The notes: a model not told the origin generated them from the letters alone. A DNA stretch of 32,065 nt from an uncultured bacterium (GCA_964619725.1 CAZUFC010000097.1:1-32065); one strand, 5' to 3'. Shown: positions 276 to 23,341, numbered from the stretch's first letter. Translations and numbers: made by a program.

Positions 276-1037
276 TTATATTTTTATATGCTTTGAAATA
301 TCCACGTTGGTCAGCCACCCCTCAACCGGTTCTGTACTTCTGCCGTTTTTCGTTATGAAAACGTCCTGAGCTTTTGACTTCTGCTCCATTGCTTTTTTCG
401 CATCGGCTAAGGTGCCGTCAATGGAGACGAAAGCCATGGTATCACTGACTATTCTCTTCATGTCTTTGTATTCCAGAAAGTCTTTAAGGGAAGCTGATTC
501 CACCTCGAAGCCGGAGTTCTGTTTTTCTTCAATCGTTTTTTCCGTTACAAATTTGTAAATGTAGCTTTGATGGATAATATATCTGGCTGATCCTGCGTTG
601 TCTAAAACCGGCATCCTCGTTATGGGGCCTTCAAACTTTTCTATGACGTCTCTTTGCAGATTAACTTTTTCGCCCATGTCGTCGTTTTCTTCCAGGGTGA
701 TCTTTTTCATGGATATTTTATCGATCATAACGTCGCTGACCATTATGGAGCGAAGTTTTTGCTCCGTGACCCGGGCGACTATGGAGCTCATACTCTGGCT
801 TGCCGCTTCGAAGTTTTCCCGAGAAAAGTAGTATGCGATGACGGTACCAATCCAGGTGCCGAGCATGGGAACAAGCATGGAAAAAGCCAGTTCTGCCGAA
901 TCCTTATCCCCTCCAATAGATAAAAAGGTGATAGTAACCGCGACCAGACTCAGTACAGAACCTCCCACAACCCATTTAGCAATTGTAGTCCTGTGTTCGG
1001 AGGGAAGGGAATAATTTTGCCTGTCATTTTCAGCCAT
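276..1037 (-). CDS. Membrane protein with two N-terminal TM helices and a C-terminal CBS-pair-like domain
   Basis: 253 aa with an AGAGGAGG SD upstream. Two hydrophobic helices (WVVGGSVLSLVAVTITFLSIG; LAFSMLVPMLGTWIGTVIAYYF) and CBS-like motifs (VSDVM, ITRMPVLD, TLADAKKAM, VEGWLTNVDI). Confidence 0.75.
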   Translation of the reverse strand: MAENDRQNYSLPSEHRTTIAKWVVGGSVLSLVAVTITFLSIGGDKDSAELAFSMLVPMLGTWIGTVIAYYFSRENFEAASQSMSSIVARVTEQKLRSIMVSDVMIDKISMKKITLEENDDMGEKVNLQRDVIEKFEGPITRMPVLDNAGSARYIIHQSYIYKFVTEKTIEEKQNSGFEVESASLKDFLEYKDMKRIVSDTMAFVSIDGTLADAKKAMEQKSKAQDVFITKNGRSTEPVEGWLTNVDISKHIKI

Positions 1038-1106
1038 ATTGTCCTCCTCTGGATTAAATTCGAATCAAACGTTAATGAAGATATAGCAAAAATAGGCAGC
1101 TCATGT

Positions 1107-1157
1107 AAACAAAAAACAGGGCTTTCAACCGTGGGTTGACGGCTGAAAGCCCTGTTT
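1107..1157 (-). terminator. Intrinsic terminator of the cohesin/dockerin operon
   Basis: 19-bp stem (1114-1132 / 1139-1157, one G-U pair on the minus strand), 6-nt loop, then a T-run on the minus strand. It begins about 35 nt after the stop at 1193. Confidence 0.85.
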
Positions 1158-1192
1158 GGGTTTACAAGTCGTCTGAACGTAATATCAGGCGA

Positions 1193-4100
1193 TCAGTTTC
1201 TTTTTCTGTTCAAGAGCAGTATACCTCCGAGGATTACCATGACTGCGATAATTCCTGAATTAGTCAAAGCGGGAACGGGGGCTGGAGTAGGAGAGAAAGC
1301 AGGCGTTCGGGTTATATCCGGAGTAGCGGTGAAGGGAGAAGTCGGTTCGACAGTGGGGGCTTCAGTGGGTTCGCCGGTAGGGGCGGTTGTAGGTTCAATT
1401 GTGGGAGCTTGAGTGGGTATTTCGGTTGGAATTGAAGTCGGTTCGGCTGTTGGAGTCAGAGTTGGCGGCAGTGTGGGTCCTTCTGTAGGGGTAAGAGTCG
1501 AAGTTGGGGAGGCAGTCGAAGTCGGGGTAAGGGTAGGAGTATTGGTCGGCGGCGGCGTCGGCGTCAGGGTCGGTGTATCGGTAGGGGTGAACGTAGGCGT
1601 ATGCGTAGGGGTTAATGTCGGACCGAATGTAGGGGAGTCGGTGGGATAAGGCGAAGGCGTGACGGGAGCCGAGCCGCACATTTCCATGTTGTCGATAATG
1701 ACAGAAGCATTGCCGTCCCAATTGTCGGGAATATCGTACATTCTGATTTGGATGTTGCATTGAACGGCGCCTGACGGAGCCGTTTGATCGAGTCTTTCGA
1801 ACACCTGCCATTCATCCGATTCCGTAGAATACCCGCCGTCGACAATGCCGATCATAAAACCGAGGCTGTCTTCCCATCGAATCCAGAGCCGTATTCGTCC
1901 TGCATCGTCATTATCGTAGAAGCGCAGTCTGAAATCGTAGGCTTCGCCGGCGTATACGGGGACTATCTGATAGAGCTCCTGAGTAAGGGGATTGGTCCAG
2001 GTCAGATTACAGGAAGAGTCTCCATAATAGACGTTATCTGTTTCCTGTGAGGCGGAGAAGCCGGTTATCTGGCTGAGCGCCCATCCATCCGGGGGTCCGT
2101 CAGAGCCGTTTTCAAACCATCTTTCAAAACCGGGATTGACGGGAAGATTATCGTAACACATTCCGGGGATCATGGTAGCGGTAGGAGCCAGAGTTGGAAC
2201 TTCAGTGGGAGTGGGCGGACCGGGGGTTTCAGTGAAGAAAGGCGTCGGCGTGAGTCCTGCGAGGCCGCAAGCTTCAATGTTGTCGATAGTAACGGATGCG
2301 TTTCCGTCCCAGAGTTCCGGATCGTCGTACATTCTGATTTGCAGATTGCAGAAAACGGCGCCGGCTGGAGCTGTTTCGTCGAGGGCTTCCAGGTATTGCC
2401 AGGCGAAGGCATCCGTAGAATATCCTCCGTCAGAGGAATCGATGAATCCGCCCTGGCTGTCTTCCCAACGAATCCAGAGCCGTATTCTGCCGGCTGGATC
2501 GTCGTCGTAGTACCGAAGTCTGAAATCATACGTTTCACCGGCTGTGACGACGAACTTCTGATAGAGTTCCTGGGTGACCGTGCTGCTCCAGTTAAGCTTG
2601 CATGAGTATGCTCCGTCAAAGACGAAGAAGATGTCCCGGGAAGCGGAGTATCCCAGGTACTGGCTGAGTTTCCAGCCGTCCGGAGGTCCATAGGGGCCGT
2701 TTTCATCCCAATCTTCGAAACCTGGATTCACGGGGAGATTATCGGCGCACATAGTGGGAATCGGCGTTCCAGTAGAGGTATTTGTGGGTGTTGTCGTAGG
2801 CGAATTGGTTGATGTGGGTGAAGGTGAGCGAGTAGGAGTGTAGGTTACCGTCGGCGTTGGGGTAAGCGTAGGGGTATTTGTTGGAGAAAAAGTCGGAGAT
2901 TGAGTAACGGTAGGAGTGAGCGTCGGTGTCGGCGAAGGCGTGGCCGTGCCGCAATAGTAATTGAACATACCCGTTTCAAGCGCCCAGCCGATCAGGTCGT
3001 CCGTCGGGTTGGAGAAGTGCAGTTCGCATTGATCGCCGTTTTGACAGGTTGGACATACAACCTTGAAAGTCAAGGTAACGAGGCTGCCGTTATTTCCGGC
3101 CGGGATATTTTCGGGATAGGAGAAACCGGCCAGAACGATCTGCCCAACGGTCGGTTCGTTGCATCCGAACATCTGCCATCCCGGATCAAGCGTTCCTTCT
3201 GAGCAAGAGACGTATTGCAGCATGTCCGTGCAATAGTTGAGGGTTATCCCGAACGAGTCCACAGGAGTATCCTGGTTGTCTATCATCACGGTCGTTTCTA
3301 CCATGCTTCCGTGGCATTCCGTGAAATCTTCCAGCCAGATCACATCATTCGTCACAGGAGTAGGAACCGGCGTGGGTTCACAGTAATAAGCGAAGGCGCC
3401 GGATTGATTGGGCCATCCCGTGAAGTCTCCTGAGAGGTTGGTGAAGTTGAGAACGCATTCATCATCGTTTTCGCAGGCAGGACAAGCAACCATGAACGTC
3501 AAAGTAACAATGCTGCCTGTGTTTCCGGCAGGAATTGTATTCGGGTAGGCGAATGCTGCGACCCTTATTTCGCCTGATTCAGGTTCGTAACAGTCGAACA
3601 TTTCCCATCCCGGATCGAGTGTTCCCTCGGAGCAAGAGACGTATTGCAGCATGTCCGTGCAATACTCCATGTAGAACCCGAAAGAATCGACCGCCGTATC
3701 CCCGTTTGAGATCATGACGTCCACGTTGACGGTTTGCCCTGTGCAGCCGGAAAAGTCTTCGAGCCATACAAGGTCAGCCGGCGTAGGAGAAGGCGTTGGC
3801 GTAGGAGGGCAGGAATAGGTGAACAGTCCTGTTTGAACGTCCCATCCGTTGAGGTCGTCTGTGAGATTGTAGAGGAAGAGAGTGTTCTGATCGCCGTTGG
3901 AGCAGATATCGCATTTGACCAGGAATGTAAGTTTGACGAGCGTCCCGTTACTGCCGGCCGGGATGGAGCCCGGATAAGCGAATCCTGCGGCCCTGACTTC
4001 CCCGGGTGCTGGGGCATTGCAATCGAACATCTGCCAATCGGGGTCCAGATCGCCCGATTCACAGCCGACATATTCGATCATGTCCGGTCTGTATCCGAGG

Positions 4101-4756
4101 TAGAACCCGAAGGAATCCACCGGGGTTTCCGGATTTGAGATCATGACGTCGACCTGAATCGTATCGCCGGTGCAGCCGGAAGAGTCTCCGATCCAGATGG
4201 AATCCGCGGCGGCAGGAGTAGGAACCGGCGTCGGTGACGGGCACGAATAAGTGAATGTCCCGCTCTGCGGATTCCAGCCTTCAAGATCACCCGAAAGCTG
4301 GGAAAATTCAAGCAGGCATGTATCGCCGTTATTACAGGATTGGCATACAACCTGAAACGTCAGCTTCACAAGGCTGCCTGAGCTTCCGGCGGGAACGCCG
4401 CCGGGTACGATGAAACCGGCGGCTCTGATTTCTCCGGCGACCGAATCATTGCAGCCGAACATGGTCCAGCCGGGATCGAGATCGCCGGGAGCGCAACCGA
4501 CAAATGCGAGCTTGTCGGCGCAATAGCTTATATAGAATCCGAACGCATCAACGGGCGTATCCGGGTTGGAAATCATGACATCGACTTCAATCGTTTCGCC
4601 GCCGCATCCGGCGAAATCTTCCAGCCAAATGTCATTGCCCCGGGATAAGCCGGCGCCGAACGCGTTCACGGCTGTCACACCTCCAGTAAATGCTGCTGCA
4701 AATGCTGCACAGCCGATCAAAATACTGACCAGAAGGCCTTGTTTTTTCATTTTCAA
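1193..4756 (-). CDS. Scaffoldin-like surface protein: signal peptide, 4 cohesin-like domains, 2 CBM4/9-like (galactose-binding fold) domains, Pro/Thr linkers, IPTL-CTERM-like anchor
   Basis: Four ~131-aa repeats (4241-4633, 3809-4204, 3380-3775, 2951-3346) with the cohesin pattern G.T..VDVMI.N...VD.FG....Y....L..V.C..G.L.....F.....G.I......G.LV.LTF.V. Two NPGFE...IDN.E domains (2267-2749, 1676-2158). C-terminus VPALTNSG + TM helix + RKR. AAGGAG SD. Confidence 0.85.
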   Translation of the reverse strand: MKMKKQGLLVSILIGCAAFAAAFTGGVTAVNAFGAGLSRGNDIWLEDFAGCGGETIEVDVMISNPDTPVDAFGFYISYCADKLAFVGCAPGDLDPGWTMFGCNDSVAGEIRAAGFIVPGGVPAGSSGSLVKLTFQVVCQSCNNGDTCLLEFSQLSGDLEGWNPQSGTFTYSCPSPTPVPTPAAADSIWIGDSSGCTGDTIQVDVMISNPETPVDSFGFYLGYRPDMIEYVGCESGDLDPDWQMFDCNAPAPGEVRAAGFAYPGSIPAGSNGTLVKLTFLVKCDICSNGDQNTLFLYNLTDDLNGWDVQTGLFTYSCPPTPTPSPTPADLVWLEDFSGCTGQTVNVDVMISNGDTAVDSFGFYMEYCTDMLQYVSCSEGTLDPGWEMFDCYEPESGEIRVAAFAYPNTIPAGNTGSIVTLTFMVACPACENDDECVLNFTNLSGDFTGWPNQSGAFAYYCEPTPVPTPVTNDVIWLEDFTECHGSMVETTVMIDNQDTPVDSFGITLNYCTDMLQYVSCSEGTLDPGWQMFGCNEPTVGQIVLAGFSYPENIPAGNNGSLVTLTFKVVCPTCQNGDQCELHFSNPTDDLIGWALETGMFNYYCGTATPSPTPTLTPTVTQSPTFSPTNTPTLTPTPTVTYTPTRSPSPTSTNSPTTTPTNTSTGTPIPTMCADNLPVNPGFEDWDENGPYGPPDGWKLSQYLGYSASRDIFFVFDGAYSCKLNWSSTVTQELYQKFVVTAGETYDFRLRYYDDDPAGRIRLWIRWEDSQGGFIDSSDGGYSTDAFAWQYLEALDETAPAGAVFCNLQIRMYDDPELWDGNASVTIDNIEACGLAGLTPTPFFTETPGPPTPTEVPTLAPTATMIPGMCYDNLPVNPGFERWFENGSDGPPDGWALSQITGFSASQETDNVYYGDSSCNLTWTNPLTQELYQIVPVYAGEAYDFRLRFYDNDDAGRIRLWIRWEDSLGFMIGIVDGGYSTESDEWQVFERLDQTAPSGAVQCNIQIRMYDIPDNWDGNASVIIDNMEMCGSAPVTPSPYPTDSPTFGPTLTPTHTPTFTPTDTPTLTPTPPPTNTPTLTPTSTASPTSTLTPTEGPTLPPTLTPTAEPTSIPTEIPTQAPTIEPTTAPTGEPTEAPTVEPTSPFTATPDITRTPAFSPTPAPVPALTNSGIIAVMVILGGILLLNRKRN

Positions 4757-4786
4757 ATCGGTCTCCTTTCCTAATGGTCAAGAATT

Positions 4787-7700
4787 TCAATACAGCTGAT
4801 CGTCTTGCAGTTCATCTACCGGCGTCCATAGCGTCTTGCCTTCCAGATAGTTATGAGTTTCTGCGGGCATCAGTTCACAGAATGTAAATGTCCCGCTGAG
4901 ACCGTTCCAATCCCCGATATCATCGGTAAGATGGGAGAATCCAATGTCGCTCCGTTCGCCGATCCGGCAGCCGTCGCAGGTTACTTTGAACGTAAGAACA
5001 GCCAGAATCTCATTGTTTTCCGCAGGGATGCCCTCTTCAGGATCAGTGAATCCGGCTATTCTGATTTCACCGGCGTTCGGTTCGTTGGCTCCGAACATCA
5101 GCCAGTCGACATCAGGATTACCCTGACGGCATTCAACGAATTCAAGCATGTCGGTTGAGTAATCCAGGGTGACCCCGAATGAATCTAATTGAGCGTCAGG
5201 ATTGGAAATTCTAACTGCAATTTCGACGATCTCGTTTTCACAGCCGGAGGCGTCGTCGATCCATATCATATCATCTTGAGCGAGGGCTTTCAGTAAGGCG
5301 TCAGTTGATTGTGAAATAGGTCCGATCGTTTTCACGTTTTCATTCAATTCATTCTGCGGTGCGGCCGGGAGACCTTTGGACAGAGGGTCGGCGCATTCGC
5401 AATCCATTCCCAGGTAATACATGAACATGCATTGCGCATCGGCTATGGTTACATTGGCGTCGCCGTTACAGTTCGCCGAGCATTCTTCTTCGAATGTAGG
5501 CGTAAAGTATCCCAGAACAATCATGAAGGTGAGCTGGGCGTCGGTGACGGTTATTTGGCCGTCATTATCCACGTCGCCGTCGTTCAAACAGATAAATGTC
5601 GGAGTCACTGTAGGTTCGGCTGTGGGAACCATGGTAGGAATGGGCGTAGTTGTTGCAGAGGGGACAGGCGTAGGCGTGAAATCGTCATTCGTCCAGTTGC
5701 CGTAATCAACGTCATCACTGACCCGTTCAGCGCCTATGTTGTTGTTTCCGTCGTCCATGCAATCATCGACTCCGTACTCGACATCCAGCGGCCCGCCGTA
5801 CATTCCCCAGTAATTGTATTGCGCATTGATGCACGTGGTGGGGTCAGCATTGTATACGGCATAGTTTATGTGACTCGAGAATGAATTGTAATCCATGGCT
5901 GATCCGCCGATGACAGGAAGAGCGGCTGATTCGACGTAAATGCCGTAACCGGCTGAACCGTCGTTATTGGAGTGCAATTCGCAGTTTTTGAATACTGGCG
6001 TTGAATTAGCTCCGGTAACGAAAGCGCCGTATCCGTAATTATCGCGGATTTTCGCGGCATTTACAATTGTGCTTGGAATTCCGCCGACGGCTTCTGAGAC
6101 GTAGATACCGTACTGACTGTTATTTTCTATCTGACCTCCCGTAATTTGCACGGTGCCCGGAGCCGCGTATACGCCGGAGGATGTGTTGTGATGGACGCGG
6201 CAATTGATGAGGGTTGGATTAGCGCTGTTCGTATGGGCTCTGACTCCGTTGCCGGCTCCGAATCCTATCTCACAATCCTGCAAAACCGGTGAACTCTCAT
6301 AACAAAGGACATTTTCGTAAGGATCGCCGGCTCCGCCGTACTCGATGACGCAGTGTTTCAAAGAGGTCACTGCATCGTCGCAGTAATTGGAGAAGTAGAT
6401 GCCCCTCCAATGTCCCGGACTGGGACTGGAAGAATGTGAGGTGAAAACGATGGGATTCGATGGTGATCCTTCAGCTACCAGTGCGCCGGGCAACAGATTA
6501 TTCGAATCATGACCGATAAACATTCCAATTCCGTTGAACAGCAGTTCGCATCCGGGTTCGAGAGTTAAAGTGGTGAGATGATCCGCTCCTGCTTGTCCCC
6601 TGACGTAGACGTCGCCGCTGTGCACATAATACGGTATTCCGTGATCTTCCCAGTAGCTGTCCAGTGAAATGGTGTCGCCGAGAACGTAAAAACGCTGGGT
6701 ATAATTGTACAGGAAGGAGCAGTCCGTAACGCCGCGCACCTTGGAAGCATACATCCTTATGGGGTATGTATAATTAAACAAGAAAGTGCAGCCGTCTACG
6801 AATGCTGAATCCTCCGACCCGTTGCAGTAGAGTCCTGTGCTTCCGTTTTCTTCTATGGTTGAATCCGAGATGTGGATCGTCGCTGTATTGTTGATATAAA
6901 TGCCATAGGTTGAGTTATGCCGGATGGTTGAATCGGATATTTGCATGTCGCTGCCGGTATCGCAATAAATACCATGGCTGCTGGAGTTTCTGATCTCACA
7001 GTATTCGACGACGGGATTTGAATTCTGATAGGAGTAAATGCCCGTTCCGCCGGCATACTCGATCAGACAATGTCTGAGCGTAGGAGATGCATCGATGCAA
7101 TGTACAGCCTCCCAGTTGGAGTAACCGCCGGACATTATTTTACAATGTTCCATCAGGCACAACGAGTCTTCTGAATATTTCTGGAAGATTATGCCGTCCC
7201 AAAAGCCGTGGCTGGGATTCTCCTGTCTTCCAGTGAAAAGGATCGGCTCAGAAGCCGTTCCGACGGCCATTAACCCGCCTGGTTCCGTAACCGTGTCGTC
7301 GTCGCCGATGTATAATCCATCCGTGGACTCAAAATGCAGTTCAGCGCCTTCCTCGATATATAAAGTCGTAACGCTGTCGGCGCCGTCCTGCCCTTTCACG
7401 TACACGTCTCCTGTTATCCAGTAGGGTTCCTTGTCGTGGTTTTCCCAATAGCTGTCCTGGGTGATCGTATCAGGCACTACGTGAAACGCTTCATAATTGT
7501 TACCCTCGAAGGTACAATTGCTGAAGTATCCCATCTGTCGGGCATAAGCGTAAACGGGATAGCCGTTATTGTAAGAGAAGTGACAATTATTAACGGAGAA
7601 GACGTGGGCTGGACTGTCGCTGTAAAATCCGTAGGTGTAATTGCCGGAAATGGTCGTGTTGTCCAGATGGATTCGCGCATTGCTGCTCAAGTAGACGCCG

Positions 7701-10700
7701 TAACTGGTGTTGTCTCTGATGGTTGAATTCGAGATGTGCGCATCGCCGTAATTGTTGGTGTATATGCCATAACTCCGATTTCCTGCTACAATGCAGTCCG
7801 TCATATTTATGTCGCCGTAATTATCGCAGTAAATCCCGTAACTTGTCGCCGCCAGTATATTGCAATGTTCGAATGTCGGATTAGCATGATCGTGGCTGCG
7901 TATATTATACCCGCCGCCGTACTGTATATTGCAATACCTGAAAGTAGGAGCAGAATCGATACAGTAAATCTGTTCGTGAGAGCTGTATCCTCCGAATTCG
8001 ACATCACAGTACTCCATCAGGCAGGCATTATCGTCGGAATATCTGTAATAATAAATTCCCGCCCAGTCATCCTGGCTGGGCGAATCGGACCTGGAGGTAA
8101 ACGTGATCCGCTGTTCGGCCGTACCGACTGCAACAAGCGCTCCGGGATAAAGCGGATCGCTGTTATGACCGATATAGAATCCCACGTTATCATTGATGTA
8201 GAACTCGACTCCGGGAGCCAGCGTCCAGGTGGTTACTTCGTCCGGGCCGTCTTTTCCCTGAACCGTTATCCAACCTTCAATGCAGTAGGGAATCGATCTT
8301 TTTTCCCAGTAGGTGTCCTCGGTAAGAGTATCGCTGCCGGCGGTTATGTATTCCCACCTGTTTCCGCTGAAGGTGCAGGGGCCTATACCGGCGATGTGCC
8401 TGGCTCTCATTCTTATGGGATAACCCTGGTTATCGATGAAAGAGCAGTTCGATATGACGGCGTAATCAGTCGTGTCGTTAGCGTTAATGCCGTAATAATT
8501 CCTGGTGAAAGTCGAGTCTGATACAACGGCAAATGAAGTGCCTGAGGCGTAAATACCATGACTGGCGTTATCATGTATATCCAATCCTGTACCGTTAATG
8601 CTGGAATTGCTGCTGCAATAAATGCCGTAAGATGTGCCGTAAGCTATTTCACAATCTTCGAGAATGGGATTCGACCAGTAATAAGAATAAAAATTGTATC
8701 CCTGCCCTCGCAAGATTCTGCAATGCCTGAAAGTCGGGGATGCGGAATAACAGTAAATATTTTCGTTGGAGCTGTAGCCACCGAACATTACATCGCAATA
8801 TTCCATCAGGCAGATGGAATCGTCTGAAAAATCGTAGAAGTAAATTCCATCCCAGTATCCGTGTGAATTCTCAAAACCTGTAAAGGTAATGCGTTGTCCT
8901 GCCGTTCCCACTGCGTAAATACCGCCGGGTTCGCCCGGGTTATTGGAACCGATCCATAAGCCTTGTTGATGATCAAAAACCAGTTCAGCGCCGGGTTCAA
9001 TAGTGATAGTGGTAACGAAATCAGCGCCATCTGTTCCCTTGACGTAGATATCTCCGGCTATCCGGTAAGGTATGTGTTGATTAATCCAGATGCAGTCTGT
9101 TCCGATGGTATCGCCGACGACATAGATCATGTTGGGCACGTCAGGCGTGATGGGCATCATGAATGTATTCGGAGGCAGGCCGATGTTTTTGACGTGTTTG
9201 GCATAGATATAAATCGGTCCGTTAAGGTTGTTGAAGAAGACGTTGTCGGTGATCACCGGCGAGATGGCGTCCGTGTTGCAGTAAATGCCGTAACCGCCGC
9301 TGTCGGCTATCAGGTTGCCGCTGATTACTGTTTCTCCTTCCACCGTCAGGTAAATCGCATGATATCCGTTCGCGGAATCTGAAAGAGTGCAGTCGGTTAT
9401 GCTGCCGTAAGAATTGTCGAAGTGTATGTTGTATTCGCCCGTTTCAATAACCGTACAACCATTGATGACAGGAGCTGAATCAAGGGCATAAATTCCGCTG
9501 TCGAAGGCATACCTGATCGTGCAGTTGGTCAGTGTCGGACTGGCGGAATTGCACGAAACGGGATAATACTTAACGCTGGAGACATACTGTCCGCCGTATT
9601 CGATAACGGTATGATTCAGTTCGCAGAGAGCATCATCCGAGTATTGCGCAAAATACACATCTCTCCAGGAGCCCGGTACCGGGACATCGCTCGTCGACGT
9701 TATAACCACAGGATTCATGTCGGTTCCCGATGTGATCAAAGCTCCGGGATAATTCGAGTTCGAATCATGACCGATGATTATACGCGCCTGGTCAGGCAAT
9801 TTGACGACTGTTCCGGCGAGAAGCGTAAGGGTCGTGACGTTGTCGGCCCCTGATTGCCCCTGAACGGTGAATCCGTTCGTCATGTAGAAAGCGGCTCCCG
9901 GGTCTTCCCAGACGGCATCAATGGACAGAGTTTCCGCTATGACATAAACATCTTTATCGACTGTGCTTCCCGTGATGTTCTGGCATTTTCCGCCGTAAGT
10001 ATAGATGCTGTAGTCGGCAGCATTGTTGGAAATCACAGCATTGGTGATGAAAGGACCGCAGGAACTGTCGTTGCAATAGATGCCGTATCCGCCGTTACTG
10101 TCTATCAGGCAATCGCTGACTGTCGGTTCTGCCGGTCCGCCGGTTACGTATAAGCCATGATCGGCGCTGTCGGTAATATCGCAGCCGATAAATGTGGGAG
10201 AACATGAATTACTGTGAATGCCGTAAGAACTGGAATATTCGACGACGCAATTATTCATCAAGGAATCGTCGTCAGCATAATTCAGGAATTGAATGCCCTC
10301 CCAGGTTCCCATTGCGTCGATGCCGGTGAAGAAAATCCGGTCTCCGCCGGAACCGTCGGCTATTAATTCGCCGGGCAGATTTGAATCCGTGTCGTGCCCG
10401 ACCGTCAATCCCACCGCAGAATCAAATTCGAATTCCGCTCCCGGTTGAATCGTGACCGTGGTTACGGCATCCGGTCCGGCCTGACCCATAATGGATACAT
10501 CGCCCAATATGCGATAGGGAATGCCCTGGTCGTGCCAGATACCATCAAGAGCCACTGTGGCTCCTGCGCATTCAATAAAGGAATTTCCGTTGCCGGAAAA
10601 AATATTCCCCGCGGTGAATCCTATCCGGTTGGCGCCAAGCCGCAAAGGCGTGCCTGTATTGTTGGTGAACAGGGAATCGGTCAGGGATATCAGACATGTC

Positions 10701-11425
10701 CCGTCGACTGTGTAGATTCCGTATCCGCCGTTACTGGAAAAATTCCCGTCGCTGATATCGAGAGAACCAGTTGTAGCCCCGTATACGCCATGATCCCCAT
10801 TATTCTGTGAAGAAGAATCCGTTACGACAAGCATCGAGGAACCTTCCGCAGCGATTCCGTACGTCCCGTTATCAGAAAAATCCGTGAACGAAAACGACGG
10901 TGAACTGCCCGCTACCGCCCTAACTCCGGATGTAATGCTGTATTGGATGTTGCAATGGCTGAAGGATGCTTCCGAATCTTCCAGATACACCATACCGCTG
11001 TTGGCTCCGCCTCCGTAGGAAATGTCCGTATACGTCAGCATACTGTCGTCGGAATTGTCCCTGAAATACAAGGTTTGCCAGTCGCCCGCCGCCGGCGTTG
11101 TCTGGGCTGAAGTGAAAATTACGGGGGTTCCCGATGTTCCCTGGGACAATAAACATCCGTATTCCCCGCTTGCACCGCCGACATAAAAGTTCATGTCCTG
11201 GTTGAATAAAACCTGAACGCCTGCCTCGATCTCTAATGTAGCTCCGTCCGTTATCGTTATGTCGCCCGTTACTATATAAACTCCGTCAGGCGACGGGTCG
11301 CTCGTTCCCCACGTCGTGTCCGAGGTTATAGCGCCCGAAACGTTTATTGATCCATAAACGGACGAACTGCACGCGAGCATCAGAAAAACGATTACTGTTA
11401 ATTGATACTTAATTGAATTCGACAA
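4787..11425 (-). CDS. Giant secreted right-handed parallel beta-helix repeat protein with C-terminal dockerin and cohesin domains
   Basis: TTG start with a GGAGGAGG SD and a signal peptide. Seven large modules (..PY.I.GD..V.G..G.D.VTT.TI.PG...W.GI.F) with many N..YGIY beta-helix coils. After a PT linker come a dockerin (DGDVDNDGQITVTDAQ / ANCNGDANVTIADAQ, ~5385-5590) and a cohesin (~4877-5275) homologous to those of the downstream gene. Confidence 0.85.
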   Translation of the reverse strand: MSNSIKYQLTVIVFLMLACSSSVYGSINVSGAITSDTTWGTSDPSPDGVYIVTGDITITDGATLEIEAGVQVLFNQDMNFYVGGASGEYGCLLSQGTSGTPVIFTSAQTTPAAGDWQTLYFRDNSDDSMLTYTDISYGGGANSGMVYLEDSEASFSHCNIQYSITSGVRAVAGSSPSFSFTDFSDNGTYGIAAEGSSMLVVTDSSSQNNGDHGVYGATTGSLDISDGNFSSNGGYGIYTVDGTCLISLTDSLFTNNTGTPLRLGANRIGFTAGNIFSGNGNSFIECAGATVALDGIWHDQGIPYRILGDVSIMGQAGPDAVTTVTIQPGAEFEFDSAVGLTVGHDTDSNLPGELIADGSGGDRIFFTGIDAMGTWEGIQFLNYADDDSLMNNCVVEYSSSYGIHSNSCSPTFIGCDITDSADHGLYVTGGPAEPTVSDCLIDSNGGYGIYCNDSSCGPFITNAVISNNAADYSIYTYGGKCQNITGSTVDKDVYVIAETLSIDAVWEDPGAAFYMTNGFTVQGQSGADNVTTLTLLAGTVVKLPDQARIIIGHDSNSNYPGALITSGTDMNPVVITSTSDVPVPGSWRDVYFAQYSDDALCELNHTVIEYGGQYVSSVKYYPVSCNSASPTLTNCTIRYAFDSGIYALDSAPVINGCTVIETGEYNIHFDNSYGSITDCTLSDSANGYHAIYLTVEGETVISGNLIADSGGYGIYCNTDAISPVITDNVFFNNLNGPIYIYAKHVKNIGLPPNTFMMPITPDVPNMIYVVGDTIGTDCIWINQHIPYRIAGDIYVKGTDGADFVTTITIEPGAELVFDHQQGLWIGSNNPGEPGGIYAVGTAGQRITFTGFENSHGYWDGIYFYDFSDDSICLMEYCDVMFGGYSSNENIYCYSASPTFRHCRILRGQGYNFYSYYWSNPILEDCEIAYGTSYGIYCSSNSSINGTGLDIHDNASHGIYASGTSFAVVSDSTFTRNYYGINANDTTDYAVISNCSFIDNQGYPIRMRARHIAGIGPCTFSGNRWEYITAGSDTLTEDTYWEKRSIPYCIEGWITVQGKDGPDEVTTWTLAPGVEFYINDNVGFYIGHNSDPLYPGALVAVGTAEQRITFTSRSDSPSQDDWAGIYYYRYSDDNACLMEYCDVEFGGYSSHEQIYCIDSAPTFRYCNIQYGGGYNIRSHDHANPTFEHCNILAATSYGIYCDNYGDINMTDCIVAGNRSYGIYTNNYGDAHISNSTIRDNTSYGVYLSSNARIHLDNTTISGNYTYGFYSDSPAHVFSVNNCHFSYNNGYPVYAYARQMGYFSNCTFEGNNYEAFHVVPDTITQDSYWENHDKEPYWITGDVYVKGQDGADSVTTLYIEEGAELHFESTDGLYIGDDDTVTEPGGLMAVGTASEPILFTGRQENPSHGFWDGIIFQKYSEDSLCLMEHCKIMSGGYSNWEAVHCIDASPTLRHCLIEYAGGTGIYSYQNSNPVVEYCEIRNSSSHGIYCDTGSDMQISDSTIRHNSTYGIYINNTATIHISDSTIEENGSTGLYCNGSEDSAFVDGCTFLFNYTYPIRMYASKVRGVTDCSFLYNYTQRFYVLGDTISLDSYWEDHGIPYYVHSGDVYVRGQAGADHLTTLTLEPGCELLFNGIGMFIGHDSNNLLPGALVAEGSPSNPIVFTSHSSSPSPGHWRGIYFSNYCDDAVTSLKHCVIEYGGAGDPYENVLCYESSPVLQDCEIGFGAGNGVRAHTNSANPTLINCRVHHNTSSGVYAAPGTVQITGGQIENNSQYGIYVSEAVGGIPSTIVNAAKIRDNYGYGAFVTGANSTPVFKNCELHSNNDGSAGYGIYVESAALPVIGGSAMDYNSFSSHINYAVYNADPTTCINAQYNYWGMYGGPLDVEYGVDDCMDDGNNNIGAERVSDDVDYGNWTNDDFTPTPVPSATTTPIPTMVPTAEPTVTPTFICLNDGDVDNDGQITVTDAQLTFMIVLGYFTPTFEEECSANCNGDANVTIADAQCMFMYYLGMDCECADPLSKGLPAAPQNELNENVKTIGPISQSTDALLKALAQDDMIWIDDASGCENEIVEIAVRISNPDAQLDSFGVTLDYSTDMLEFVECRQGNPDVDWLMFGANEPNAGEIRIAGFTDPEEGIPAENNEILAVLTFKVTCDGCRIGERSDIGFSHLTDDIGDWNGLSGTFTFCELMPAETHNYLEGKTLWTPVDELQDDQLY

Positions 11426-19366: not shown

Positions 19367-22111
19367 ATGAAAAAGATATTGACCTATTTTTTTGTTTTTA
19401 TTGTAACCGGGTCGATGTTTGCAGATTCTGCGAATGCTGATCCGCCTATTTACATTTCTTTTTTATGGCATATGCATCAGCCTATTTACGTGCCTTATGA
19501 CGAACCGTATCAGACGATACAATGGAACGGTCCCCAGGGCGGCCCTTCGTTTTCTTACAGTCTTCATGAGATGTGGTCCAGCAAGACAGGGCCTTACAAG
19601 GGATGGTCGGTTGATGCGGTGGAGACGGCGATGAATGCGGGATTGGGGCACGCCGGCGCGCAGATCGATTTATCGGGGAGTCTGATAGAGAGTCTCAACA
19701 ACCTGGATTTTCATGACTGGAATTGGGACACTTATGGGGGCTGGAAGGATCGTTTTTCCCAGGGACTATCCTGGCAGACGGATTTGGGGAACCCGCGATT
19801 AGACGTCATAGCCTTTCCTTATCATCATCCCATTATCGGTTTGTTGAATCACAAGGCCTTAAGGATGCAGTTTCTGACTCACCGCAAACTGTTCACGGAC
19901 AATTTTTCCTGTGGGTATTCGCAGGGGTTGTTTCCGCCCGAGACGGCATTCACGGAGCGAGCGATACCTGTTTTAGCATCGTTGGGTATTGAGTGGGTGA
20001 TTATCGACAATATCCATTTAAGCCGGACATTAAGCGATTATCCCTGGACGGGCAGTTCAGGGGTTGTTGAGCCTAATGTTTCAGATCAGCGCAACGGAAC
20101 GCTGTCTCAGGTTGATCCGGATTCAGCCTGGATTCAATTGAACGGTGTGTGGGCGCCTGAGAAGGTATGTTCCTGGGCCTACAGGCCGCATTACATCAGT
20201 TGGACGAGTCCGGAAACGGGAATGGAGGAGAGAATCGTAGCAGTCCCCGGCGCCTGTTACATGGGCAATGAAGATGCAAGAGGCGGTTTCGGAGCGTTGC
20301 AGTATGAAACGGTGATGGGACAACTGGAGAGTTACAACACTGATCCTGAGCATCCAATATTAATTGTGCTGCATCATGATGGAGAAAATTACGGCGCCGG
20401 CGTGGAATCGTATTATCATTCAAATTTTCAGAATTTTGTAAACTGGTGTCTGGCGAATCCTGACCGCTTTGTGCCCACGACGATTCAGGACTATCTGGAG
20501 ATGTTTCCTCCTGATCCTTCTGACGTAGTTCATATTGAGAATGGGGGTTGGATAGGGGCCGGCTGTCTTTCTCCGGAATTCCATCATTGGCTGGGGGACC
20601 CGGAAGACGGTTACAGTCCTGATTGGAACAGTTGGGCAGTTATGACGGCTGCCGAGAACTGGGTCATGACTGCCGATGATGTTTCTCCCTGGAGCGACCT
20701 GGGTCATATAGTTTATGGAAACGGTACTGAGACGGAGAAAGCCTGGCGGTATTTTCTGTGCGCCCAGGCGAGTTGTTACGAATACTGGGAAGGGGGCGCT
20801 GACCAGGATATATGGAATTCCAATCCGACCAGGGCCTGCAATGCAGCGGTACAGCATGCGGAAAACGCCGTCGGCGGCAGCGCAGACAATGTCGGACCCA
20901 CCATTTTTCCGCCTCAGAGGGAGCCTTACAATCCCGGAGGACTCGAATGGGGAGTAACGCAGCCTTCGGAATTCGAAGTCTGGAGCTTTATCTACGACGT
21001 GAGCGGAGTGGAATCGGCTTATGTCTATTACAGAACAGACCATGACGGAGAAGTGGACAGCGGTAATATGACGTATGCCGGAGGCGACTGGCATGCGGCA
21101 TCGATGAGCTCTGAAGCTTTTTCTTCTCAGACGATAATCGATCCGATTTACAAGGCTGAGCGATATTACGCTGCGGTTGACGGCGGCGAGGCGAATATTT
21201 TGATCGATTATTACATCGAGGCTTCGGATACGCAAGGCAATATTGCAAAAAGTCACATCGAGCATGTTTTCGTAGGGGCTTCAGAATTTAACCAGGATGT
21301 ATATTGGAAACCTTCGCATCCTCATAAAAATCAGGCTGTTACGGTTTATATTCAGAACTATCCGACATCGGGCAAGTTGCATTGGGCCGTCAACGGATGG
21401 TCCGAACCTGAAGATTTTTACTGGCCTGAAGGGTCTCAATTTTACGATGGAGGACCGGCAGTGGAGAGTCCGCTGCTGGGTCCGGACCAGGAAGACCGTC
21501 TTTACATTGAGCTAGGTCCTTTCGATAATCCCGGACAAAGCGTGGAATGGGTCGACTTCGTCATTCATTTCGACAATAACGAATGGTGGAACAACGACGG
21601 GAACGATTATCACATATACATTGATCAGAATACCCCTACTCCGACATTTACTCAGAATCCGCAATCCACTCGCACTCCGACTTGCACACCGACTTGCACA
21701 CCGACTTGCACTCCGACGGGTTTTTATACTTTTGCTCCCACGGTCACCCCTCCTCCTTCACTGATTGAAATAGAATGTCTTTTGTCCCGCACGGAATTCA
21801 GGGCCGGCAACACGTTCGATTACGTCGTTTCAATGCAGAATGAGGGGACGGACAGGCTGGTTAACCTGGTCGTTATGCTGGAAGCCTACGGCGAATTCTA
21901 CTTCTGGCCTTCCTGGATCAATAATGACATCGATTGGGAACAGCGATATTTGTACGCTTCATCAACCCTGAGAGAATCGATTCTGTCCTTTGAATGGCCG
22001 GAGAACGCCGGAAGCGGTAATGCTTTATTATGGTCCGCCGTCTTTTCCCCCGAAGAATTTACCGCTTATTTCCTGTTGGATTTTTGTTCTGCAGGATTCT
22101 CCTGGCATTGA
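19367..22111 (+). CDS. Secreted glycoside hydrolase family 57 (alpha-glucan active) with putative starch-binding module, PT linker and conserved C-terminal domain
   Basis: Signal peptide. Motifs WHMHQPIY, YHHPI, FPPETAF (catalytic Glu) and HHDGENYG (catalytic Asp). CBM-like segment LHWAVNGW...WWNNDGNDYHI. CTD at ~21761-22111. Confidence 0.85.
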   Translation: MKKILTYFFVFIVTGSMFADSANADPPIYISFLWHMHQPIYVPYDEPYQTIQWNGPQGGPSFSYSLHEMWSSKTGPYKGWSVDAVETAMNAGLGHAGAQIDLSGSLIESLNNLDFHDWNWDTYGGWKDRFSQGLSWQTDLGNPRLDVIAFPYHHPIIGLLNHKALRMQFLTHRKLFTDNFSCGYSQGLFPPETAFTERAIPVLASLGIEWVIIDNIHLSRTLSDYPWTGSSGVVEPNVSDQRNGTLSQVDPDSAWIQLNGVWAPEKVCSWAYRPHYISWTSPETGMEERIVAVPGACYMGNEDARGGFGALQYETVMGQLESYNTDPEHPILIVLHHDGENYGAGVESYYHSNFQNFVNWCLANPDRFVPTTIQDYLEMFPPDPSDVVHIENGGWIGAGCLSPEFHHWLGDPEDGYSPDWNSWAVMTAAENWVMTADDVSPWSDLGHIVYGNGTETEKAWRYFLCAQASCYEYWEGGADQDIWNSNPTRACNAAVQHAENAVGGSADNVGPTIFPPQREPYNPGGLEWGVTQPSEFEVWSFIYDVSGVESAYVYYRTDHDGEVDSGNMTYAGGDWHAASMSSEAFSSQTIIDPIYKAERYYAAVDGGEANILIDYYIEASDTQGNIAKSHIEHVFVGASEFNQDVYWKPSHPHKNQAVTVYIQNYPTSGKLHWAVNGWSEPEDFYWPEGSQFYDGGPAVESPLLGPDQEDRLYIELGPFDNPGQSVEWVDFVIHFDNNEWWNNDGNDYHIYIDQNTPTPTFTQNPQSTRTPTCTPTCTPTCTPTGFYTFAPTVTPPPSLIEIECLLSRTEFRAGNTFDYVVSMQNEGTDRLVNLVVMLEAYGEFYFWPSWINNDIDWEQRYLYASSTLRESILSFEWPENAGSGNALLWSAVFSPEEFTAYFLLDFCSAGFSWH
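21677..21712 (+). repeat. 12-bp tandem repeat x3 encoding PTCT in the GH57 linker
   Basis: ccgacttgcaca ccgacttgcaca ccgacttgcact. Confidence 0.9.
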
Positions 22112-22126
22112 CCCTGGCGTTTGTAA

Positions 22127-23341
22127 ATGAGGTTTAAAATGTATTTTTTTTCGTATTTTCGTTTGTGCCGCAGACTTATATTCCTTGTATTCATAAACTG
22201 TTGTTTGTTCTGTTTGGATACTCACGACAGCGCTTATGCTGCAGGATTTAATTTCATGAATGCGAAGGCTATGGGCATGGGAGGAGCTTATTGTGCGCTG
22301 GCCGAAAGCGCAGGTGCGCCTTACTGGAATCCCGCCGGCCTCGCGTTCAGAAAAAGTTATGGACTCACTTTTGAGACTTCTGAATTCCAGCGCACTCAAC
22401 CTCATATTGAATCCAGGCTGGAAGATGCCTATTCCTTGCCGCCCATGGATGAAACCGTGTATGACGATGCGGAAGCGACGGAAACTCTGGTCAGACGACT
22501 TAAAGACCTGAATGACATAGACATCGGCGCTGTAAGGAGTAAAACGATGACCTTTTCGATATTGAGCGCCGGCGGAGCCATGATCGTTCGTGAGATAGAC
22601 GAACTCTGGTTCAGACCGATAATCGACCTGGAAAATATTGAATCAGCCCCTCCTGAAGAAGAAAACTCCATTGCTGACAATGATTCCAGGATAGAATTCA
22701 CCGGCATTAAAGGAACTGAATTCGACATATCTTTTTCCAATTTGCATCCTGAAGCGAAAGCGGCCTGGGGAGTAACGGTAAAATATGTAACCGGCAAAAC
22801 TTACAGACATTCCAGGTCGATCTGGAATCTGGATTCAGAAAACGATTCTGATGAGTTGCTGGACAGAGTCGACAGGTATGAAGAGCAGCAGGATGAGTAT
22901 TGGAGTGCGGATATGGGACTGATATTGTTTATGGGTAACGGCAGATTGGGTTTCGTCGGACATGATGTGTTTCGTCCCAAACTTGAAAGAAAAAATGAGG
23001 AGGCGATTGAAATAGCGCCTTCCTACAGGATCGGTTTTTCGCAGAGTTTTTCCAGGAATTTTCTGATGGCGGTGGATTACGATTTAACGAAAAACAAATA
23101 TGAAAACGAATATGCCGGGAAAAAGCATATTAGTTTCGGTTTGCAGAAGTGGTTTGGAAACAGGAAGAAGTTCGGATTGAGAGCCGGTCTGTTGCGGGAT
23201 TTTGAGGCGGATGAGAATGAAATTGTATACACGACGGGTTTGGGAATAATGACGAAAATCGTCGAAGGAAATGTCGGAATTGCTTTTGATAATGAAAAGA
23301 ATCAATTCGGTTGGTCGTTCGATTTAAAAATAGATTTTTAA
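22127..23341 (+). CDS. Outer-membrane beta-barrel of the FadL/PorV/TraF-like superfamily
   Basis: N-terminal hatch motif AKAMGMGGAY....A.YWNPAGLA, amphipathic strands and terminal Phe (FDLKIDF). Start codon uncertain. Confidence 0.75.
   Translation: MRFKMYFFSYFRLCRRLIFLVFINCCLFCLDTHDSAYAAGFNFMNAKAMGMGGAYCALAESAGAPYWNPAGLAFRKSYGLTFETSEFQRTQPHIESRLEDAYSLPPMDETVYDDAEATETLVRRLKDLNDIDIGAVRSKTMTFSILSAGGAMIVREIDELWFRPIIDLENIESAPPEEENSIADNDSRIEFTGIKGTEFDISFSNLHPEAKAAWGVTVKYVTGKTYRHSRSIWNLDSENDSDELLDRVDRYEEQQDEYWSADMGLILFMGNGRLGFVGHDVFRPKLERKNEEAIEIAPSYRIGFSQSFSRNFLMAVDYDLTKNKYENEYAGKKHISFGLQKWFGNRKKFGLRAGLLRDFEADENEIVYTTGLGIMTKIVEGNVGIAFDNEKNQFGWSFDLKIDF

Follow-up and report, generated by a model that had tools for sequence, protein, structure and literature searches.

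We analyzed a 32,065-nucleotide (nt) stretch of DNA from an uncultured bacterium (GCA_964619725.1 CAZUFC010000097.1:1-32065; hereafter, the window) that carries two adjacent genes for very large proteins with cohesin and dockerin modules. Gene A encodes a scaffoldin with four cohesins, two modules resembling carbohydrate-binding modules (CBMs), and a C-terminal sorting signal. Gene B encodes a giant beta-helix protein that ends in a dockerin followed by a cohesin of its own. A preliminary description of the stretch had proposed that the pair forms a non-cellulosomal cohesin-dockerin assembly at the surface of an outer-membrane organism. The source is a metagenome-assembled genome (MAG) of 9.17 Mb in 344 contigs, with a completeness of 90.9% and a contamination of 6.5%. 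Below, G000 denotes this genome, C97 the contig of the window, and G003 to G009 relatives from the same phylum. The genome has six Omp85 matches and seven secretin matches, and a FadL-family protein is encoded in the window itself; the organism is therefore a diderm, as proposed.

The two genes are co-oriented on the minus strand and separated by 30 nt (4757-4786), in agreement with the 30 bp given in the preliminary description. The single terminator that it placed after the pair was also recovered, 36 nt past the stop codon of A and running from 1157 to 1114, and the scan found no terminator-like site in the gap between A and B. In total, 13 terminator-like sites were found, a number not above that in shuffled sequences (10.5 ± 4.1), and the stem at 1157 to 1114 was by far the longest. 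Both genes begin with TTG and are preceded by Shine-Dalgarno sites: GAGGAGGAGGG lies 7 nt upstream of the TTG of B at 11425, and GGAAAGGAG lies 6 nt upstream of the TTG of A at 4756, with an ATG two codons further on, at 4750. The database gene call for B (P0003, 2197 amino acids [aa]) begins 15 codons inside the open reading frame (ORF; window 11381-11425) and lacks the signal peptide. Judged by its strong Shine-Dalgarno site, the TTG at 11425 is the better start. Within the predicted signal peptide, LMLAC is a possible lipobox-like motif. The database copy of B also lists PF28492.

The four cohesin-like repeats attributed to A are matched by Pfam Cohesin (PF00963) at 94.4 bits in four stretches (cut-off, 24.1). 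They are 53-59% identical to one another in pairwise comparisons and 39-45% identical to the cohesin of B. A profile of 33 cohesin modules from the phylum matched cellulosomal cohesins in the PDB (6kgc_A, E 1.4e-7). The cohesin fold was modeled with AlphaFold2 (AF2) for the module of B, and the four modules of A were assigned by sequence. The model of the B cohesin had a predicted local distance difference test score (pLDDT) of >90 over the domain, and a Foldseek search matched it to type I cohesins (5nrm_A, TMt 0.74, E 3.3e-11; ∼0.7 to 1ohz_A, 1aoh_B, and 2ccl_A) and to the non-cellulosomal Archaeoglobus cohesin 2xdh (TMt 0.76). By sequence, and where a model was built by its predicted fold, the nine-stranded beta-sandwich (jelly roll) of type I cohesins, the cohesin modules of A and B are members of the cohesin family.

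Downstream of its cohesins, A carries the two modules X1 and X2 of ∼165 aa each. Pfam assigned no family to X2 at E ≤ 10 and gave X1 only weak PA14 and LtfC matches, and a PDB sequence search with X2 returned only chance-level matches. The AF2 model of X2, however, resembled CBM4-2, CBM16, CBM22, CBM61, a hyaluronan-binding module, and C-terminal domains of phage tailspikes in Foldseek, at 12-20% identity and with template modeling (TM) scores of 0.60-0.70 to 2y64_A, 3oeb_A, 2xon_L, 1h6y_A, and 4d0q. Because of these structural matches, the earlier term "CBM-like" is apt for the predicted fold, with no CBM family assigned by sequence. A Pfam scan of A found no SLH match, and a comparison with PHROGs gave a single match, to a family of unknown function.

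The body of B is a beta-helix of the length stated in the preliminary description (∼1900 aa). Beta_helix (PF13229) matched it at 344.4 bits in nine stretches and NosD at 167.1 bits, and six units of ∼210-290 aa each could be aligned, with 30-47% identity to the first. The body is followed by the dockerin, in which both of the EF-hand loops reported earlier are present. These are 12-residue loops of the Ca type, DVDNDGQITVTD and NCNGDANVTIAD, and a DAQxxFM helix comes after each of them. The dockerin is 63-68% identical to paralogous dockerins of the genome. Those at C20, C64, and C276 (63-66%) score 26.2-35.6 bits and pass the cut-off of Pfam Dockerin_1 (PF00404); in all, 11 of the 17 PF00404 matches in the genome lie above it. 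Against a hidden Markov model (HMM) built from the genome's own Pfam dockerin matches, this copy included, the B dockerin scored 100.1 bits. Six cysteines (C12, C48, C52, C65, C75, and C77 of alignment A2) are invariant in all 18 aligned members. The AF2 model has three helices, at residues 26-37, 44-50, and 60-70, with pLDDT >90 for residues 11-80. Judged by its architecture, the dockerin belongs to its family, this copy being marginal by Pfam score.

The preliminary description treated B as cargo. The part of this claim that stands is a beta-helix giant with no recognizable glycoside hydrolase, but B also contains a fifth cohesin that had been missed, which starts ∼40 residues past the dockerin and ends the protein. 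AF2 modeled this dockerin-cohesin cassette (the last 278 residues of B) with a pLDDT of 83.9, a predicted TM score (pTM) of 0.81, and a low-confidence linker. Since it ends in such a cassette, B is not cargo alone but is built like an adaptor.

Features of the two-gene unit, with positions counted in the window
Feature	Position	Strand	Description
Gene B	4787..11425	-	ORF, 2212 aa: signal peptide, beta-helix repeats, Pro/Thr linker, dockerin, linker, cohesin
Predicted N-terminal signal peptide of B	11348..11425	-	MSNSIKYQLTVIVFLMLAC SSSVYG; read from the translation without a predictor
Right-handed parallel beta-helix region of B, ∼1,870 aa	5726..11347	-	PF13229 and NosD; six aligned units
Dockerin of B	5384..5590	-	Two Ca-type loops and helices; six family-invariant cysteines
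Fifth cohesin ("G-type"), C-terminal module of B	4856..5275	-	PF00963, 28.7 bits (cut-off, 24.1)
Gene A	1193..4756	-	ORF, 1187 aa: signal peptide, four cohesins, Pro/Thr linker, two CBM-like modules, long Pro/Thr linker, sorting signal
Cohesin 1 of A (S-type)	4232..4645	-	Pfam Cohesin; alignment A1
Cohesin 2 of A	3803..4213	-	Pfam Cohesin; alignment A1
Cohesin 3 of A	3374..3784	-	Pfam Cohesin; alignment A1
Cohesin 4 of A	2945..3355	-	Pfam Cohesin; alignment A1
CBM-like beta-sandwich module X1	2261..2755	-	65% identical to X2
CBM-like beta-sandwich module X2	1670..2164	-	AF2 pLDDT 95.6, pTM 0.90
Pro/Thr-rich linker of A, ∼125 aa	1292..1669	-	Read from the translation
C-terminal sorting signal of A	1196..1285	-	PVPALTNSG, then hydrophobic helix IIAVMVILGGILLL, then NRKRN
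Intrinsic terminator	1114..1157	-	19-bp stem with 9 G-C pairs, loop of 6, then TTTTGTTT (T-run)

The C terminus of A had been described as an anchor. A C-terminal signal is present, but it is a tripartite signal of the exosortase/archaeosortase type, composed of an [IV]P[AS]xxxxG motif, a membrane helix, and a K/R cluster. In the sorting systems of this type described by Haft and colleagues, the helix is reportedly cut away. Because the helix of A is thus probably removed and need not persist in the membrane, "sorting signal" is the better term. A regular expression for such tails ([IV]P[AS...]x(1-7), a hydrophobic helix, and K/R at the C terminus) matched 214 of the 17,915 ORFs of at least 100 aa, a few of them evident false matches, and 16 of the 214 are cohesin ORFs; ∼200 ORFs of the genome carry the signal. 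The genome has a single gene of the exosortase/archaeosortase family (at C134, 190 aa), which matched PF09721 at 35.5 bits and TIGR04178 at 65.7 bits (cut-off, 23). The enzyme is nearest to ArtB (78.2 versus a cut-off of 150) and XrtH (76.6 versus 86), under both class cut-offs. Ten tails compared with NCBIfam gave similarly low scores: IPTL_CTERM reached 13.4 and 15.8 bits (cut-off, 20.5), VPxxxP_CTERM reached 14.5 (cut-off, 30), PEP_CTERM exceeded its cut-off in one of the ten (18.6 versus 16), and midcut_by_XrtH matched six of the ten, all far below 45. The tail of A itself had only weak, sub-threshold matches. Taken together, the signal and the enzyme look like a member of the PEP-CTERM-like sorting systems that falls outside the named classes and has a very large predicted client set. 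Among the ORFs with this signal are giants of 12,092, 8,482, and 6,404 aa (e.g., C34:1691-37966, C39:32530-57975, and C8:95371-114582).

A sortase-dependent LPXTG anchor was considered as well and ruled out, since a scan of the 90.9% complete genome found no sortase family. The LPXTG_anchor model scored just above its cut-off in two of the ten tails (16.6 and 17.6 versus 15.9 bits). In both, the alignment fell on the membrane helix and basic tail of the model, which are generic (positions 11-34 and 17-33 of 34), and did not reach the LPXTG motif.

To place the locus within the genome, HMMs built from the cohesins of the window and from the genome's Pfam dockerin matches were run on G000. In total, 53 cohesin domains were found in 31 ORFs and dockerins in 36 ORFs, with both modules present in 19. 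The dockerin precedes a terminal cohesin in 17 of these 19, with a linker of ∼33-72 aa. The remaining cohesin ORFs (n = 12) carry one to five cohesins and no dockerin; 11/12 immediately follow, on the same strand, a gene that encodes a dockerin, and 11/12 end in a sorting signal matched by the regular expression, the twelfth (C154) showing the motif by eye. The window's locus is one of 11 similar gene pairs in the genome. The pair also recurs in G003, a relative from another family, where contig C25 encodes a giant with Beta_helix and the same cassette and, after it, carries a gene for three cohesins; this orthologue of A ends in a dockerin in place of the sorting signal. Since 11/12 cohesin-only genes follow a dockerin gene and the same pair is found in G003, the pairing of A and B is not due to chance. 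The cohesin-dockerin loci at C86/C122 and at C276/C277 are near-identical and probably represent strain duplicates in this MAG with 6.5% contamination, and the locus and domain counts are therefore slightly inflated.

A tree of 45 cohesins, including 32 S-type rows of this genome, separated two classes. One clade (98/94) comprised the cohesins that terminate the giants at C97, C20, C64, and C276, and it was sister (100/98) to the scaffoldin cohesins of C97, C20, C64, and C5. The two classes thus predate the duplication of the loci. Elsewhere in the genome, at G000:C12:40036-40775, a cohesin frame with one in-frame TAG lies beside a 116-aa dockerin ORF; this is a dockerin-cohesin gene broken by a stop, either as a pseudogene or through a sequencing error. 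An 847-aa secretin encoded outside the window (G000:C12:72037-74577, locus L169; PF00263, 121 bits, and Secretin_N) has a C-terminal segment of ∼110 aa that Pfam Cohesin matched at 25.6 bits in the genome scan. This tail was not matched by our own cohesin HMM and fell short of E ≤ 1e-5 in a final Pfam scan; as a cohesin-like module, it could serve as a dockerin socket on an outer-membrane channel.

The distribution of these modules was then considered in a GTDB set of 14 species of the phylum, in which the window's genome is alone in its family. The cohesin type was found in 10/14 genomes and the dockerin type in the same 10, with neither in the other 4, and an exosortase homologue was present in 14/14. 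Because related genomes are not independent, this co-occurrence is to be read as a pattern, not as a statistic. The genomes of family f3 (G003-G008; 2.6-4.6 Mb) contain 21-70 cysteine-rich dockerins each, mostly on proteins of 300-1,300 aa. Outside the phylum set, a profile of the cassette searched against 1.84 billion representatives matched 3,860 proteins at E ≤ 1e-3 and 299 at E ≤ 1e-30. An earlier homologue search with B residues 1935-2212 had given 3 matches among 1,433 candidates of 1,216-3,871 aa; given the 3,860 proteins found by the exhaustive profile search, this low number reflects limited sensitivity, not rarity. Some of the metagenome representatives appear to be this genome's own proteins, judging by their lengths and domain tables. 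Among 151 proteins whose architecture was recorded (the best 150 of the 3,860 plus P0005), cohesins (C) and dockerins (D) mix freely, as CDC (34 proteins), DC (31), CCD (18), CDCC (11), and others. A protein atlas returned cohesin/dockerin clusters only. Judged by domain content, the locus belongs to a genome-wide and phylum-wide cohesin-dockerin repertoire.

We favor, with somewhat better than even confidence, a reading in which Ca-dependent binding between cohesin and dockerin mounts giant beta-helix proteins on a multivalent scaffoldin that is sorted by the exosortase. Both proteins would be exported by Sec, each by means of its N-terminal signal peptide, and would then have to cross the outer membrane. 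Protein A would act as the scaffoldin, with four cohesins, two CBM-like modules, and a long Pro/Thr spacer, and its C-terminal signal would direct it to the sole exosortase-family enzyme, which is expected to cleave away the helix and attach A to the envelope or to a matrix. Protein B would form a rod of ∼1,900 aa of beta-helix, whose Ca-binding, disulfide-rich dockerin would plug into the cohesins of A, allowing up to four copies of B per A. The terminal cohesin of B, which belongs to the separate conserved class, would leave one more socket open, which could receive another dockerin protein or extend the chain. The outcome would be a non-enzymatic adhesin, coat, or polymer-capture layer, and not a cellulase complex. 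Its cysteine-rich dockerins may be stapled by disulfides.

Several observations weigh against this reading, the first of which concern binding. The window's dockerin falls below the Pfam cut-off (21.4 bits as an isolated piece and 14.9-17.7 bits in context, versus 22.9). Its second loop also departs from the family at two positions, with N at position 1 in place of the nearly invariant D51 (at least 90% of the 18 A2 rows) and A at position 6, which is mostly G in the genome's dockerins. The scaffoldin cohesins of C97, C20, and C64 were not separated by locus in the tree, and the adjacency of A and B is therefore no proof of a private partnership. The pTM of 0.81 over the 278 residues of the cassette suggests that the AF2 model holds the dockerin in a set position next to the cohesin of B itself; were this predicted contact intramolecular, the dockerin would not be free for A. 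The reading would also require proteins of this size to cross the outer membrane. A joint prediction of S-type cohesin (alignment A3) and dockerin (residues 1-85 of A2) gave 0.30 versus a mark of 0.32, in a run without controls, and speaks neither for nor against binding.

The cassette model raises the alternative that B caps itself, its dockerin clasping its own cohesin so as to stabilize or mask the C terminus. Protein A would then serve other dockerin proteins, and the adjacency of the two genes would reflect co-regulation or shared ancestry. The high pTM despite a low-confidence linker speaks for such a clasp, and the conserved order and linker length in 17/19 two-domain ORFs, the 31 DC architectures among the metagenome representatives, and the standing of the terminal cohesins as their own conserved class are consistent with it. 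However, AF2 also joins intermolecular partners when they are given as one chain, and a high pTM cannot tell contacts in cis from contacts in trans. The position of 11/12 cohesin-only genes behind a dockerin gene is, moreover, hard to explain if the neighbors never meet, and few dockerin proteins lack a detected cohesin and could fill the 32 S-type cohesins of the genome. We regard self-capping as unlikely.

The second group of observations against the favored reading concerns the absence of enzymatic activity from the proposed layer. Beta-helices of the PF13229 and NosD types are found in carbohydrate-active enzymes. Since Beta_helix (CASH-type) domains occur in lyases, epimerases, and hydrolases, the label "non-enzymatic" is tentative for B. 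Whole-protein Pfam scans covered 20 of the 36 dockerin ORFs, and the 12,092-aa protein at C34 was scanned over its first 5,000 residues, where one sub-threshold GH43 match was found (28.4 versus 32.2 bits). A profile of the B units gave weak, short matches in the PDB to the AlgE4 epimerase (E 6.5e-4, ∼60 residues), a phage tail fibre, and Vag8, and the AlgE4 match, as a sequence similarity of this kind, neither supports nor excludes catalysis by B.

These points bear on the possibility that the assembly is an enzymatic, cellulosome-like complex, in which the units of B would be a polysaccharide lyase, epimerase, or hydrolase of the CASH/pectate-lyase kind and the CBM-like modules of A would target a glycan, for example, mat exopolysaccharide; the runs that contain the stretch are labeled microbial mat metagenome and come from one study. 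In addition to the similarity to AlgE4, a mannuronan C5-epimerase, the PHROGs comparison gave B one generic tailspike beta-helix match (phrog_7458), and the same dockerin or cassette occurs on enzymes elsewhere. Among eight dockerin ORFs of relatives that were scanned, four had a further Pfam family, namely, Astacin, Amidase_3, an FGE-sulfatase-like family, and LTD, the last from G009 of family f4. Among the metagenome matches, cargo was examined in 21 of 23 proteins with a long N-terminal body, after the window's protein and its C64 paralogue had been dropped: Beta_helix was found in six, Peptidase_C25 in three, Peptidase_S8, Laminin_G_3, and FG-GAP/CARDB in one each, and no cargo family in nine. 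The dockerins on C25 (gingipain-like) and S8 peptidases, Astacin, and Amidase_3 suggest, from domain content, a protein- or cell-wall-degrading complex in the relatives.

In the window's own genome, by contrast, the 20 scanned dockerin ORFs had no glycoside hydrolase or peptidase family at E ≤ 1e-5 and no polysaccharide lyase family. Beta_helix was found in 14 of them, the others carrying PKD/NHL/MAM, FG-GAP/CARDB, or Laminin_G or PLD-like domains, with one lacking a further family. The Pfam scan of B likewise found no glycoside hydrolase, polysaccharide lyase, or peptidase family, and a PDB sequence search with the whole protein gave no match at E ≤ 0.01. The AlgE4 match covers ∼60 residues of generic beta-helix coil, and six tandem copies of one unit resemble a rod more than an active site. 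An enzymatic role seems improbable to us.

A broader version of the display on scaffoldins can be envisaged, in which the cassette is a self-propagating connector. Rods would daisy-chain outward from the four sockets of A, itself glycan-binding and fixed by the exosortase, and, with the 11 paralogous pairs, build an open-ended, branched matrix or sheath surrounding the diderm cell; with the peptidase and amidase carriers found across the phylum (up to 70 dockerins per genome), the disulfide-stapled modules would form a general exosortase-linked "surface Lego" of the entire candidate phylum and not an offshoot of the cellulosome. We consider this extension speculative and rather unlikely.

An artefact, in the form of chance ORFs, an assembly chimera, or decaying genes, was also weighed. 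The MAG is fragmented and partly contaminated, sequencing depth was low (∼4-9x), and no RNA run was listed as holding the stretch, which was found in four DNA runs of one study, one of them possibly the source. However, contigs from two further runs agree with the stretch with 0 differences, and one of these, from a second run of the same study, spans the gene junction (4161-5227). The two reading frames run uninterrupted for 3.6 and 6.6 kb and give strong domain scores, and the same architecture recurs in paralogues and orthologues. We consider an artefact extremely improbable. The G+C content is 0.48-0.54 in A and B versus 0.43-0.47 in the flanks (window 1001-11000 versus flanks), a difference for which horizontal transfer was considered as a reading but which may be explained by the Pro/Thr/Gly/Ala-rich composition of the two proteins. 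An A+T-rich spacer of ∼560 nt and then a phosphofructokinase gene lie 5′ of B, and the flanks as a whole consist of housekeeping genes and the gene for the FadL-type outer-membrane protein (FadL family, 225.8 bits). Farther away, and unrelated to A and B, positions 19367-23341 encode a 914-aa protein that combines GH57 with an Ig domain of the alpha-glucan water dikinase type and, directly after it, a 404-aa TraF_2-like beta-barrel protein.

The locus reveals a large natural cohesin-dockerin repertoire in an outer-membrane bacterium and suggests, with regard to mat ecology, that members of a little-known phylum have a matrix or adhesion layer made of protein. If the proposed binding is true, the pair would provide a concrete case of very large proteins being mounted on a diderm surface and would connect the exosortase pathway, which is poorly understood, with a defined group of client complexes. 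Cohesin-dockerin pairs are the standard example of extracellular protein assembly that can be programmed, and synthetic biology makes wide use of them; binding here would add orthogonal and possibly more robust pairs to this toolbox.

Since the scanned proteins showed neither glycoside hydrolases as cargo nor anchoring through SLH domains or a sortase, the assembly is not a cellulosome by definition. It shares with the clostridial cellulosome (the CipA and anchoring scaffoldins of Clostridium/Acetivibrio thermocellus) a multi-cohesin scaffoldin with modules of the carbohydrate-binding type, a two-loop Ca-type dockerin on the cargo, a type I-like cohesin fold, and Pro/Thr linkers. It differs in its diderm host, an exosortase-type signal instead of SLH domains or a sortase signal, a beta-helix giant without glycoside hydrolase as cargo, CBM-like modules outside the Pfam CBM families, and a dockerin with six invariant cysteines. 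As in PEP-CTERM and other exosortase/archaeosortase systems, a tripartite C-terminal signal is found on many substrates alongside one exosortase-family gene, but the motif here reads [IV]P[AS]xxxxG instead of PEP, the enzyme stays under the cut-offs of the nearest named classes, and the signal models match weakly.

Known adaptor scaffoldins are mostly cohesin arrays with a terminal dockerin. Like those of Ruminococcus flavefaciens (ScaA) and Acetivibrio cellulolyticus (ScaB) (PMC4959524), B holds both a dockerin and a cohesin and could both be bound and bind, and the G003 orthologue of A, with three cohesins and a C-terminal dockerin, has the adaptor layout. In contrast to these adaptors, the only cohesin of B stands behind the dockerin, and both modules follow a body of 1,900 aa that contains no cohesin.

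Non-cellulosomal cohesin and dockerin modules were reportedly catalogued by Peer et al. in 2009. Such modules, for example, the Archaeoglobus fulgidus cohesin 2xdh, resemble those of the window in occurring beyond cellulose degradation and at times in one protein, but the present genome has true multi-cohesin scaffoldins and 11 dedicated gene pairs. Multi-cohesin scaffoldins were absent from the archaea surveyed by Peer et al., according to a later study (PMC9012536). Anaerobic methanotrophic (ANME) archaea and syntrophic sulfate reducers express cohesin/dockerin proteins that have been read as adhesins (PMC10553843 and PMC9012536). In the passages of these two papers that were consulted, neither a dockerin-cohesin cassette on beta-helix giants nor exosortase signals were found, and the supplements (S4 Data and S10 Table) may hold similar proteins. 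These complexes share with the window's locus a proposed role in the surface or matrix and not in cellulolysis, scaffoldin-like proteins with up to five cohesins, and, in the sulfate reducers, a diderm host. Their cargo differs, consisting of substrate-binding proteins, S-layer domains, and Ig-like adhesins.

Ca. Stygibacter (Cloacimonadota) is a diderm as well. For this candidate-phylum bacterium, a cellulosome-like extracellular complex has been proposed in which the scaffoldin is attached through a conserved C-terminal domain (PMC8542988). The complex is like the one considered here in having a cohesin scaffoldin with CBM domains on the producer's own cell surface and dockerins on peptidases, as in the relatives of the window's organism. 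Its cargo, however, consists of enzymes (GH18, GH57, S8, and C25), in contrast to the beta-helix rod and the exosortase-type signal found here.

A further arrangement is that of Cag_2037/Cag_2038 in a Chlorobiota epibiont, neighboring genes for giant surface proteins that were modeled to bind each other by cohesin and dockerin (bioRxiv 10.64898/2026.03.19.712371). As in the window, the host is a diderm and the giants are adjacent, one bearing a cohesin and the other a dockerin, and a beta-helix (alginate epimerase/lyase-like) domain is proposed to be held at the surface. The Chlorobiota pair has one cohesin and one dockerin, Type I secretion, and RTX, and the available text gives it no multivalent scaffoldin, cassette, or exosortase signal. 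A literature search that did not extend to the ANME/sulfate-reducer supplements found no account of beta-helix giants that bear a dockerin-cohesin cassette, of a dockerin with six cysteines, of scaffoldins with an exosortase-type signal, or of a conserved gene pair of giant and scaffoldin; PMC5244752 was the only paper it returned in which cohesin, dockerin, and exosortase occur together. The preliminary description nevertheless overstated its case in calling the locus an undescribed system, since non-cellulosomal or cellulosome-like cohesin-dockerin assemblies in diderms have been proposed in three of these sources (PMC8542988, PMC10553843, and bioRxiv 10.64898/2026.03.19.712371). The idea of such a surface assembly is already in print, and the window's locus is a variant of it, with its own cargo, cassette, and sorting signal.

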